Assembly (NCBI GenBank): GCA_026388015.1
Contig: JAPLKO010000047.1
Span: 32,878 to 96,877, forward strand
Direction: 5' to 3'
From: Candidatus Firestoneibacteriota bacterium
GTDB taxonomy: Bacteria; Oederibacteriota; D2-FULL-39-29
Length of the DNA: 64,000 bases
Shown here: positions 12,954 to 18,685 of the stretch, one piece after another
How positions within the stretch are numbered: position 1 is the stretch's first letter
Layout: each line of letters opens with the position of its first letter
The notes under the pieces: generated by a model
Seen by the model: only the letters and a program-made list of their open reading frames with translations
The model's database searches: none
What the model was told of the DNA's origin: nothing
Made by a program: the position numbers and the translations under genes

Positions 12954-12990
12954 AAAAAAGGGCTTTTTCATGTTACAGAAAAAGCCCTTT
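12954..12990. terminator. Intrinsic terminator after etfA
   Basis: aaagggcttttt / aaaaagcccttt inverted repeat flanked by A/T tracts. Confidence 0.75.
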
Positions 12991-13005
12991 AAAATATATT
13001 TTCTT

Positions 13006-14199
13006 TTACTTTTTAATTTTTGCAATCAAAGCAGGAATCACTTCAAACAGGTCGCCTACTATCCCGTAAGTCGCAATCTCAAATATCGGCGCTTGCGGGT
13101 CTTTGTTAATTGCTATTATATTTTCCGAGGATTGCATACCGGCCATATGTTGTATTGAACCGGAGATACCTACGGCAATATAGAGTTTAGGACAAACGGT
13201 CTTTCCTGTCTGTCCGACCTGGTGCGAATACGGAATCCAACCCGCATCAACTGCCGCGCGGGACGCACCCACTGCGCCGTTTATCTGCTGCGCCAGTTCC
13301 CTGACTAAAGAAAAGTTCTTAGCTTCCCCGAGTCCTCTCCCGCCGGAGACAATAATATCCGCTTCGGAGAGGTTAACGGTGGATTCAACTTCTTTAACAA
13401 AATCAATGAGTTTGGTGCGGGCAAGCAAACAGTCTTCCTGGATGTTTTTTGTAATGATAAGCCCTTTTCTGTTCGGATCTTTTGCAGCTTTCTTAAATAC
13501 TTTGTGTCTTACGGTAGCCATCTGCGGCCTAAAACTCGGACAGGTAATCGTCGCCATAAGATTTCCGCCGAACGCCGGCCGGGTCTGAAGAAGAAGTTTT
13601 GTATACTCGTCTATATCAAGCTGGGTACAATCTGCAGTAAGTCCGGTTTCCAGCATTACGGCAACTTTCGGGATGAAAGAACGTCCGAGCGCCGTAGCTC
13701 CGGTAAGGATAATATTAGGCTTATACTCTTCAACTAAAGCAACAAGCGCTTTTGAGTAGGATTCATCATTGAAATCTTTTAAACAGTTAGAATCAACTAC
13801 ATATACTTTATCGGCGCCGTGAAGAATAAGCTCATTGGCTCTATGGGTAACATTATTTCCGATAAGCACCGCACAAAGTTCTTCTCCGAGCTGGGTAGCA
13901 AGTTTTCTGCCTTCATTTAAAAGTTCGTAAACAACAGAGGCAATCTCACCCTGACGCTGTTCTGCGTAAACCCAGATACCTTTATACAAAGAAAGGTCCA
14001 CATCCGATACTTTTCTGTCCACCTGAATAAGTATTGCTTTGAATTTTTTGCAGGCATCAAGACAAGCTCCGCAGTAGTTACATTTAACGGGGTCAATGAA
14101 TGCTTTTTTTGTATCGCTCATGGTAATTGCGCCCTGCGCGCAGGTAGGAAGACATAATTTACACCCTACACATTTTTCATTTAATACTTTTATAGCCAC
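13006..14199 (-). CDS. etfA: Electron transfer flavoprotein alpha with N-terminal 2x[4Fe-4S] ferredoxin domain
   Basis: CVGCKLC and CNYCGAC N-terminal motifs; GLTADCT; RPAFGG; SGGRG; QVGQTGK; GISGSIQH. Confidence 0.95.
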   Translation of the reverse strand: MAIKVLNEKCVGCKLCLPTCAQGAITMSDTKKAFIDPVKCNYCGACLDACKKFKAILIQVDRKVSDVDLSLYKGIWVYAEQRQGEIASVVYELLNEGRKLATQLGEELCAVLIGNNVTHRANELILHGADKVYVVDSNCLKDFNDESYSKALVALVEEYKPNIILTGATALGRSFIPKVAVMLETGLTADCTQLDIDEYTKLLLQTRPAFGGNLMATITCPSFRPQMATVRHKVFKKAAKDPNRKGLIITKNIQEDCLLARTKLIDFVKEVESTVNLSEADIIVSGGRGLGEAKNFSLVRELAQQINGAVGASRAAVDAGWIPYSHQVGQTGKTVCPKLYIAVGISGSIQHMAGMQSSENIIAINKDPQAPIFEIATYGIVGDLFEVIPALIAKIKK

Positions 14200-14223
14200 A
14201 ATAGCCTCCGGATCTTTTAGCTT

Positions 14224-15021
14224 TTAATTAATTAATTTTGCTGCTCTAAGTTTATTAACAACACTTTCCGCTTTTGCTTCGACTGTAGCACCTTCTATAA
14301 TCTCTTTCTTTCCGCTTCTTACCGGCACGAATACTCTGTTAACCAGAGTAGGCGAACCTCTAAGACCGATAAAATCAGGATCGCACTCAATATCTTTCGC
14401 ATTCCAGATAACAGGCTTATAGGATTTCGCTTTCATCTTTCCCCGCATCGATTCTATTCTTGGTTCGTTTATCTCTTTAACCACGGAAAGAAGCATTGGC
14501 AGCGAGCTCTGAATGACCTCATACCCGTCATCCATCATTCTTTCAACCCTGATAGTTTTTCCCGCAAGATTAACATCTTCTATTTTTTTCACCCAAGCGA
14601 CAAAAGGAATATCCAGCCAATTAGCAATGCCGGGACCCACTTGCGCGGTATCTCCGTCCATTGCCTGCTTTCCGGTAAGGATCACATCCGCTCCACCCAT
14701 CTTTTTAATACCCTGGGCAAGCGTATAAGAAGTAGCAAGAGTGTCGGAACCCGCAAATGCGCGGTCGGAGAGGATAATGCCGTCATCCACGCCCATTCCG
14801 ATACAGGTTTTGACCGCCTGATCGGCCTGCGGAGGACCCATAATAATAACGGTGACTTTGCCGCCAAACTTTTCTCTTAAGCGTATGCCTTCTTCAACCG
14901 CGTAAACGTCAAACGGATTGACAATAGCCTCGACGCCTTCCCTTATAAGTGTATTAGTCGCCGGATTAATCGCCACCTTAGTGGTCCCCGGCACCTGTTT
15001 TATACATACGACTATATTCAT
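14224..15021 (-). CDS. etfB: Electron transfer flavoprotein beta
   Basis: VCIKQVP, NPFD, GSDTLATS, GKQAMDGDTAQVGP. Confidence 0.95.
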   Translation of the reverse strand: MNIVVCIKQVPGTTKVAINPATNTLIREGVEAIVNPFDVYAVEEGIRLREKFGGKVTVIIMGPPQADQAVKTCIGMGVDDGIILSDRAFAGSDTLATSYTLAQGIKKMGGADVILTGKQAMDGDTAQVGPGIANWLDIPFVAWVKKIEDVNLAGKTIRVERMMDDGYEVIQSSLPMLLSVVKEINEPRIESMRGKMKAKSYKPVIWNAKDIECDPDFIGLRGSPTLVNRVFVPVRSGKKEIIEGATVEAKAESVVNKLRAAKLIN

Positions 15022-15121
15022 TTTACTCTCCTAGAAAAGCGATTCCACTGATTTCAAAACTTCTGGATTCCACTGATACAAGAGTTTTCAGCTTTTGCTA
15101 AGCATCCAACCATCTAATCCT

Positions 15122-17017: not shown

Positions 17018-18255
17018 CCAATATATTTTTTTATTGCAACAGTCGCATTATGTCCGCCAAATCCGAAGGAATTGGAAATAGCAAGATTTAATGTTTTCTG
17101 TTTTGTTTTATTCGGTACATAATCAAGATCACATGCCGGATCCGGATTATCCAGATTAATTGTCGGAGTTATAAGATTATTCTTTACAGAAAGAACTGTA
17201 GCGATAAACTCCGCGCCTCCGGCCGCACCTAGCATATGGCCTATCATTGATTTTGTAGAGCTTACTGAAAGTTTATAGGCGTGTTCTTTAAAAACACTCT
17301 TTATGGCAGCTGTTTCACCTGTGTCGCCTAACGGTGTTGAGGTTCCGTGAGCATTGACATAGTCAACGTCTTCCGGTTTTGCGCCTGCATCATTAATACA
17401 ATTTTTCATTGCCCGGGCGCCGCCTTCTCCGTCTGCCGGCGGAGCGGTCATATGGAAAGAGTCCGAAGACATTCCGTAGCCGACCATCTCGGCATAAATC
17501 TTTGCTCCTCTGGCTTTGGCGTGTTCCAGCTCTTCCAGAACTACAACTCCCGCGCCTTCCCCCATAACAAAACCGTCCCGGTCTTTATCGAAAGGACGGC
17601 TGGCGTGTTTCGGATCATCATTTCTGCAGGACATAGCCTGGGCGGAACAGAAACCCGCCATGGCAAGTTCTACTATCGTACATTCAGCGCCGCCGGTAAC
17701 CATCACATCAGCATCTCCGTATTGAATGTGCCGGTAGGATGTTCCAAGACTGTTATTTCCTGAAGCACAGGCAGTAACAACACAAGCGCTCGGGCCTTTT
17801 AAACCAAGCTGTATTGAAACCATACCTGCCGCCATATTAGAAATCATCATGGCAATAAAGAAAGGGCTGACTCTTGAGGGCCCTTTTTCTATTAGTGTGT
17901 AAGTCTGGTCCATAAGAGTATTTAAACCGCCGATACCTGAACCAATTATAACACCCATGCGGGTAGCATCTTCTTTAGTTATATCCAGGCCGGAGTCTTT
18001 CATCGCTTGAACAGAGGCAGCCATAGCATACTGGGTAAAACCATCCATACGCCTGGCGCTCTTTTTGTCCATATACAATGTAGGATCAAAACCTTTAACT
18101 TCACAGGCAATCTGGGTAGCTAAACGGGAAGCGTCAAATTTGGTGATCTTATCTGCGCAGCTTGCGCCGGCACAAAGACTCTTCCAGAAAGTATCAATAT
18201 CATTACCGGCCGGGGAGATCACCCCAAGACCGGTAACTACGACTCTACGTTTCAT
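17014..18255 (-). CDS. fabF: 3-oxoacyl-ACP synthase II
   Basis: TACASG, NAHGTST, GHMLGAAG, SNSFGFGGHN. Confidence 0.97.
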   Translation of the reverse strand: MKRRVVVTGLGVISPAGNDIDTFWKSLCAGASCADKITKFDASRLATQIACEVKGFDPTLYMDKKSARRMDGFTQYAMAASVQAMKDSGLDITKEDATRMGVIIGSGIGGLNTLMDQTYTLIEKGPSRVSPFFIAMMISNMAAGMVSIQLGLKGPSACVVTACASGNNSLGTSYRHIQYGDADVMVTGGAECTIVELAMAGFCSAQAMSCRNDDPKHASRPFDKDRDGFVMGEGAGVVVLEELEHAKARGAKIYAEMVGYGMSSDSFHMTAPPADGEGGARAMKNCINDAGAKPEDVDYVNAHGTSTPLGDTGETAAIKSVFKEHAYKLSVSSTKSMIGHMLGAAGGAEFIATVLSVKNNLITPTINLDNPDPACDLDYVPNKTKQKTLNLAISNSFGFGGHNATVAIKKYIG

Positions 18256-18272
18256 GATTTAACCTTGTCCGC

Positions 18273-18512
18273 TTAGGAGTTGGTTTTTTCTTTTAGGTAT
18301 TCAACGACATTCGAGACTGCCTTGATCTTTTCGGCATCAGTATCCGGAATTTCAATTCCAAATTCTTCTTCGAAAGCCATCACAAGTTCGACTGTATCCA
18401 GAGAATCTGCACCCAAATCATCGACAAATGATGCGGTTGCGGTAACCTGGGCTTCTTCTACGCCCAACTGCTCAACTATGATTTTCTTCACTCTCTCTTC
18501 GATTGTTGCCAT
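18273..18512 (-). CDS. acpP: Acyl carrier protein
   Basis: [20 protein letters not shown] phosphopantetheine site. Confidence 0.98.
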
Positions 18513-18656
18513 TGTATTCCTCCTTAGTGTTTTATTGCGCTTAAGCGGTATATCTCTGCCGCTTTAAGTAAAAGACCCAAACCGACGACCCGACTTATGG
18601 CCAAGCCGATAGCTTGGTTTTTAACAGGGTTTAAGACCTCTGCTAAAAGATTACAT

Positions 18657-18685
18657 ATTCTAATGAACTAACGGCGGTTTGTCAA
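18657..18685 (-). promoter_or_regulatory. sigma70 promoter of acpP operon
   Basis: TTGACA (18685-18680), 17 bp, TAGAAT (18662-18657). Confidence 0.75.

Follow-up and report, generated by a model that had tools for sequence, protein, structure and literature searches.

A ferredoxin-fused Etf and an acyl-CoA dehydrogenase-fold enzyme as a candidate enoyl-ACP reductase of Firestonebacteria and other strict anaerobes

We analysed a 64,000-nucleotide stretch of DNA (hereafter the window) from a Candidatus Firestonebacteria genome (1.69 Mb, 94% complete), in which genes for an acyl-CoA dehydrogenase (ACAD) family protein, acd, and for the two subunits of an electron-transferring flavoprotein (Etf) stand at the end of a row of type II fatty-acid synthesis (FAS II) genes. 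Recomputation bore out the gene order of the first-pass annotation, all on the minus strand: acpP (acyl carrier protein, ACP; 18273..18512, over the TIGR00517 cut-off), fabF (beta-ketoacyl-ACP synthase II; 17014..18255, 646 bits on TIGR03150), rnc (RNase III; 16313..17017, over the TIGR02191 cut-off), acd (15122..16288), etfB (14224..15021) and etfA (13006..14199, GTG start), with gaps of 17, -4, 24, 100 and 24 nt. The sigma-70-type promoter reported ahead of acpP (TTGACA-17-TAGAAT, 18657..18685, minus strand) is the top-scoring match in the region (11 of 12 positions), and it is identical letter for letter, hexamers and spacing alike, in two relatives (loci L021 and L022) despite their diverged upstream flanks; promoter-like matches overall are at chance in the region (16 found, 17.6 expected). 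The upstream fabG (3-oxoacyl-ACP reductase; 18979..19725, minus strand, 340 bits on TIGR01830, over cut-off) is cut off from the unit by a strong intrinsic terminator of its own (approximately 18835..18875, minus strand; fold z -6.3, then a U run). The terminator already proposed after etfA is real (12957..12990, minus strand; 13-bp stem, z -4.85), and between acpP and etfA we detected neither a strong terminator nor a strong promoter. Together with the spacing, this makes co-transcription from acpP to etfA likely. Metatranscriptome contigs from one freshwater study carry patches of fabG, acpP, fabF, rnc, acd and etfB and bridge acpP-fabF, fabF-rnc and acd-etfB, with none of those listed bridging rnc-acd; they were not used as evidence, because contigs cannot show one transcript and may stem from DNA.

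Two non-coding parts of the unit have features of their own. The acpP 5' leader (18515..18650, minus strand; z -2.7) is structured, with three hairpins, of which the long middle one persists, with some bases changed, in two relatives (L021:1455-1601, L022:5600-5749). No Rfam family matches the leader at the gathering score, and it may serve as an RNase III target by which the operon's own rnc is autoregulated. The 100-nt gap between acd and etfB has no significant fold (z 0.64) and no promoter match. It contains an 11-mer direct repeat (twice, window 15031-15085, minus strand; single copy in the genome), and in the closest relative the short direct repeat lies between rnc and acd instead (L021:3790-3915).

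The products of the last three genes are of known kinds; what would be new is the role proposed for them here. The predicted structure of Acd (pLDDT 89.5) has a TM-score of 0.94 to the butyryl-CoA dehydrogenase (Bcd) 4L1F, and its fold and the catalytic glutamate in a YEG motif place it in the ACAD superfamily. Its nearest solved structures are the clostridial-type Bcd enzymes 4L1F and 5OL2, at 50-51% identity. Acd, EtfB and EtfA each fall below every named NCBIfam equivalog cut-off, those of the acryloyl-CoA reductase AcrABC included (452/640, 228/475 and 388/600 bits, respectively). AcrC is the top model for Acd, and a true Bcd obtains 549 bits on it. In a quick IQ-TREE phylogeny, with an ingroup picked by similarity and a small outgroup containing one true Bcd, a branch with SH-aLRT 97 separates 81 Acd-clade sequences from that Bcd, which belongs to a crt-hbd-bcd-etfB-etfA operon (L220); Acd does not group with the butyrate-pathway enzyme. 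The catalytic Glu366 is invariant across the clade (81/81), which is further marked by an invariant Arg179, by Gln155-Trp156 and Asn369-Gln370, of which Gln370 is likewise invariant, and by a longer, mildly basic C-terminal helix. Helix E of the clade is without the one-residue insertion of Bcd-type enzymes, an insertion that goes with a shallow short-chain pocket. Its absence would fit a deeper pocket, and the extra basic residues would fit binding of the acidic ACP.

The Etf is of the bifurcating type in its motifs. Among solved structures EtfB is closest to CarD (6FAH, E 1.7e-71) and then to four other bifurcating Etfs, with AMP-type Etfs at 1e-25 or weaker. EtfA matches CarE (6FAH) over its full length (E 6e-130) and shares its N-terminal 2x[4Fe-4S] domain. 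The two CxxCxxCxxxC motifs and GLTADCT of EtfA and the NPFD of EtfB, all listed in the first-pass annotation, are present. We rejected NPFD as a marker of bifurcation: relatives vary between NPFD, NPYD and NPMD, and the bifurcating LctB has NPYD. The motifs described for group-2 bifurcating Etfs are the arginine of RPxFGG in the large subunit, on which bifurcation depends, and RxGV and GSPTxV in the small one (PMC10734219). The Firestonebacteria subunits carry RPAFGG in EtfA and REGV and GSPTLV, along with DGDTAQV, in EtfB, and about 90% of relatives linked to fab genes carry the group-2 motifs as well (37/40, 38/42 and 38/42; range 37-41 of 40-42 Etf subunits).

The best hits, at 97% and 94%, are to Ca. 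Firestonebacteria, and the rest of the genome gives this gene set its context. It encodes accA, plsX-fabH-fabD, fabG, acpP, fabF and fabZ, as well as lipid-A genes and trimeric [FeFe] hydrogenases, so that FAS II is needed and the organism has the look of a fermenting anaerobe. Two HydABC-type [FeFe] hydrogenase gene sets lie on either side of a rex-like regulator (contig C30:24660-35535), and a second ACP (37% identity to AcpP, motif GADSFAS) is encoded directly upstream of an acpS-like gene (C29:10806-11484). The first-pass annotation had noted that the window lacks an enoyl-ACP reductase; we found none in the window, nor across the genome, in searches that covered FabI, FabL, FabV and FabK and, here as in all other genomes, left out rarer types such as FabMG. 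FabV was not found, the best tblastn match for FabI (E 2e-4) is an unrelated short-chain dehydrogenase/reductase (SDR), the top match for FabL is FabG, and the protein nearest to FabK scores 137 bits against a TIGR03151 cut-off of 453. Nor does any crotonase, 3-hydroxyacyl-CoA dehydrogenase or thiolase exceed its cut-off in this 94% complete genome, the thiolase matches being FabH and FabF; hence no source of enoyl-CoA was found. One ACAD and one Etf are all that the genome holds. It thus appears to have no known enoyl-ACP reductase, and its sole enoyl-thioester reductase, Acd, would be without a CoA substrate pathway.

The placement of acd among fab genes extends well beyond this genome. The 80 closest Acd loci share 63-97% identity; in 44 of them acd stands inside a fab cluster, across many anaerobic phyla and in at least three gene orders, and the other 36 are unlinked. 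The gene follows fabF-rnc in Firestonebacteria, Endomicrobia, Fibrobacterota and Edwardsbacteria, directly follows fabF in Omnitrophota and Ratteibacteria, and lies between fabH and fabD in Nitrospirota, Margulisbacteria, Rokubacteria and an actinobacterium; at fab-linked loci the median gap from the upstream fab or rnc gene to acd is 29 nt. Two lineages show replacement in place. In Nitrospirota, either acd-etfB-etfA or fabK occupies the same slot (plsX-fabH-[slot]-fabD-fabG-acpP-fabF-rnc), and in Omnitrophota either acd-etfB-etfA or fabI follows acpP-fabF. Where acd has no adjacent etf genes, an orthologue of the ferredoxin-fused EtfA is encoded elsewhere in the genome (5/5), and no such orthologue was found in five of five genomes with a canonical reductase. 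The genome search and synteny check that the first-pass annotation proposed thus point the same way, with no canonical reductase in the Firestonebacteria genome and fab synteny conserved across many phyla, and its suggestion of an enoyl-thioester reductase tied to fatty-acid synthesis is supported by both and by the occupancy of fabK and fabI slots.

The distribution of Acd is nearly exclusive of that of the known reductases. FabI, FabV and over-cut-off FabK are each found in none of the 44 fab-linked genomes (FabL was not searched in these), two of which encode FabK-like proteins below the cut-off (338 and 291 bits), and only 11 have a crotonase. The FabV model was silent on its positive control in the first census; the same model later matched 12 Omnitrophota. 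In a sample of 151 Nitrospirota genomes, 85 carry an Acd orthologue (60-67% identity, single copy, with a clear gap to other proteins at <=47%) and 52 carry FabI or FabK (FabI 49, FabK 4), with no overlap (FabL and FabV were not searched). Of 201 Omnitrophota genomes, 108 carry the orthologue and 78 a reductase (FabI 43, FabL-like 53, FabV 12); one of the 108 carriers has FabI, FabL, FabV or FabK besides, and 16 genomes have neither orthologue nor reductase. In Omnitrophota the FabL-like SDRs have divergent fabZ-like and ACP-like genes close by (L216-L219), a setting that suggests a second, specialised fatty-acid cluster, and it is uncertain whether they are housekeeping FabL enzymes. Position in fab operons and complementarity with FabI, FabK, FabL and FabV are the pattern of a gap-filling enoyl-ACP reductase, with exceptions in Bacillota and in one Omnitrophota genome, G343. 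Small Fisher P values overstate the case because kinship makes the genomes non-independent. What counts as evidence is a small number of swaps, in which four unrelated reductase families take part.

Taken together, these observations make it probable that Acd-EtfB-EtfA is an Etf-fed, ACAD-fold enoyl-ACP reductase of FAS II in this bacterium and in many other strict anaerobes. It would be a probably undescribed, and possibly energy-saving, substitute for the usual enzyme; no paper proposing such a role was found in the literature searched, whose coverage mostly excludes subscription journals. In the proposed mechanism, EtfB would take up electrons from NADH on its beta-FAD and hand them, by way of the EtfA alpha-FAD, to the FAD of the ACAD-fold enzyme, a tetramer. 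This flavin would then reduce trans-2-enoyl-ACP, the product of FabZ, and the resulting acyl-ACP would go to FabF; Glu366 would act as the acid. That ACADs can act on carrier proteins has precedent (RedW/PigA, MbtN, 4IRN), though in the oxidative direction.

More tentatively, and with somewhat less than even confidence, we suggest that the enzyme and its ferredoxin-fused Etf bifurcate electrons directly on enoyl-ACP, giving reduced ferredoxin in each round of elongation. The low-potential electron of each pair would then pass through the [4Fe-4S] clusters of EtfA to ferredoxin (2 NADH + enoyl-ACP + oxidised ferredoxin -> acyl-ACP + reduced ferredoxin), and the trimeric [FeFe] hydrogenases could use the product. 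Bifurcation is plausible because the redox potential of the enoyl/acyl thioester couple is far more positive than that of NADH, and Bcd-EtfAB and CarCDE exploit this gap to reduce ferredoxin. It is not assured, since acryloyl-CoA reductase has a similar Etf and yet is not known to bifurcate. In the Margulisbacteria copies of EtfB, moreover, an AMP site has been read and bifurcation judged unlikely (PMC6349859), which weighs against this mechanism; set against that reading, the five closest solved relatives of the Firestonebacteria EtfB are all bifurcating.

Several further points weigh against a role as enoyl-ACP reductase. The support comes from sequence and comparative genomics; the metagenome-assembled genomes (MAGs) are incomplete and phylogenetically dependent, and perhaps only about four to six of the swaps are independent. 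Phe232 and Asp240, which we take to be CoA-adenine-site residues, are changed in the Firestonebacteria Acd but retained by most clade members. Their loss was therefore rejected as a mark of the clade, and use of ACP has no clear-cut signature in the sequence. A predicted complex of the ACAD dimer and FAD with ACP scored 0.00, which is no evidence either way. In Bacillota, a subclade not linked to fab genes occurs together with FabI or FabK in each of the three genomes tested, so that Acd is in some genomes not the only reductase, and it may be repurposed there. Genome G343 carries both acd and FabV; its fabV and an ACP-like gene lie divergent beside acd-etfB-etfA, away from other fab genes (L194, G343:C1:386000-405999), an arrangement that is possibly a displacement in progress. 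Lastly, the Firestonebacteria genome encodes a lone FabX-like FMN/[4Fe-4S] protein (C23:16546-17703), away from the fab genes, which falls short of FabK, has a C-terminal four-cysteine motif (CxxxCxxxC...YC) as in FabX, and could in principle run as a reductase. A cysteine-bearing gene of the same nitronate monooxygenase (NMO) family lies between acpP and fabF in Margulisbacteria and one actinobacterium (L031:13197-14171, L056:6309-7271, L071:13167-14147). Its product, of about 320 residues with a compact four-cysteine motif, scores 180-199 bits on the FabK model, between FabX-like proteins and FabK.

Could these FabX-like proteins be the real reductase, driven by ferredoxin, with Acd-Etf either oxidative (dehydrogenating acyl-ACP for unsaturated fatty acids) or serving as their electron feeder? 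Their family includes FabK, relatives sit within the Margulisbacteria fab operons, and in Omnitrophota 40 of 42 FabX-like matches fall in genomes with the Acd module. Nonetheless we think this improbable. The characterised FabX is an oxidative dehydrogenase/isomerase with an Fe-S domain where the NAD(P)H domain would otherwise be (PMC8626469), the Firestonebacteria gene is isolated from fab genes, and no FabX-like gene was found in 67 of the 108 Omnitrophota carriers or in 21 of the 44 fab-linked genomes, more than the expected incompleteness. Alternatively, the module may make or modify short acyl-CoA primers for FabH, such as propionyl-, butyryl- or branched acyl-CoA, while an unrecognised enzyme reduces enoyl-ACP. 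The position of acd directly downstream of fabH in Nitrospirota and Margulisbacteria would suit such a role, as would AcrC as top model and short-chain enzymes as nearest structures. But a true Bcd outscores Acd on AcrC, helix E lacks the Bcd-type insertion, no enoyl-CoA source was found in the Firestonebacteria genome, and the slot swaps and the exclusivity with FabI, FabK, FabL and FabV would stay unexplained; we give this account little credence.

The module could also be a bystander, a fermentative Bcd/EtfAB- or CarCDE-type system for a CoA substrate, as the first-pass annotation allowed and as published annotations of Bcd/EtfAB would have it (PMC6349859; bioRxiv 10.1101/765248), the exclusivity then reflecting a split in lifestyle between anaerobes and aerobes. 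About 50% identity to Bcd, the CarDE-like Etf, the 36 unlinked loci and the Bacillota copies alongside FabI or FabK speak for this possibility. What makes it less likely is that none of crotonase, 3-hydroxyacyl-CoA dehydrogenase and thiolase was found in the Firestonebacteria genome, which leaves no butyrate or beta-oxidation pathway found there, and that no crotonase was found in 33 of the 44 fab-linked genomes. Insertion into fab operons at three different positions and a clade separate from the Bcd of crt-hbd-bcd-etfBA also speak against it, and it would leave these genomes with no known enoyl-ACP reductase at all. We regard it as unlikely.

Comparison with characterised systems sharpens what an Acd-EtfBA enoyl-ACP reductase would share with each. 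The bifurcating caffeyl-CoA reductase CarCDE of Acetobacterium woodii (6FAH) is alike in its three-gene architecture and in the chemistry of enoyl-thioester reduction, as well as in its Etf. Acd itself, however, is closer to Bcd (E 6e-120) than to CarC (E 9e-88, 26th among solved matches), and no carAB activation genes adjoin it; acd sits in a biosynthetic fab operon, with rnc and a Crp/Fnr regulator as neighbours. Bcd-EtfAB of Clostridioides difficile (5OL2) and Acidaminococcus fermentans (4L1F, 4KPU) provides the closest ACADs and shares the catalytic glutamate and the group-2 Etf motifs, but Acd forms a separate clade with its own signature residues and longer C-terminal helix, its EtfA has a ferredoxin domain, and no thl, hbd or crt was found in its genome. 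FabI, FabL and FabV (SDR) and FabK (FMN TIM-barrel) share the proposed reaction, the operon slots and the complementary distribution; they are of unrelated fold and transfer hydride from NAD(P)H on a single polypeptide, whereas Acd-EtfBA has three subunits and would use Etf-borne electrons. The prolyl-PCP (peptidyl carrier protein) dehydrogenases RedW, PigA and AnaB and the acyl-ACP dehydrogenase MbtN put the ACAD fold to work on phosphopantetheine carrier proteins, yet they are oxidative enzymes of secondary metabolism, and Acd scores far below their cut-offs (277/650, 263/500 and 56/700 bits). FabX of Helicobacter pylori likewise interconverts acyl-ACP and enoyl-ACP with flavin and [4Fe-4S], but as a single-chain TIM barrel that is oxidative with O2 and unrelated to Acd-EtfBA (PMC8626469).

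Past the terminator, at window 11412-12914 (minus strand), lie genes for a Crp/Fnr regulator, a NifU-C/NfuA-like protein, a Zn-ribbon protein and a small 2x[4Fe-4S] ferredoxin, the last a candidate electron acceptor for the Etf; crp and nifU are adjacent in L022 too. Elsewhere in the window are a gene for an 816-residue fusion of CoA-disulfide-reductase-like, rhodanese, TusA and DsrE domains, of a sulfur-relay or persulfide-reductase type (30658-33108, minus strand), a tRNA-Glu (22639-22715), and a region resembling an rRNA operon (about 55000-60500, minus strand) with tRNA-Ile and tRNA-Ala at 58715-58877.

If Acd-EtfBA is the enoyl-ACP reductase of these bacteria, it would fill a gap in fatty-acid synthesis in Firestonebacteria, in about half of the sampled Omnitrophota and Nitrospirota, and in Endomicrobia, Margulisbacteria and some Fibrobacterota, among them lineages with cultured members (Thermodesulfovibrio, Endomicrobium). 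An unrelated fold would join FabI, FabL, FabV and FabK, and many MAG annotations of Bcd/EtfAB that have been used to infer butyrate metabolism would need to be read again. Should the complex also bifurcate, it would represent a new class of enoyl-ACP reductase, serving a dozen or more anaerobic phyla as their main one, and would be the first step of fatty-acid synthesis known to us to bifurcate electrons. Lipid synthesis would then regain energy that is lost with FabI or FabK, although the flux would be small.

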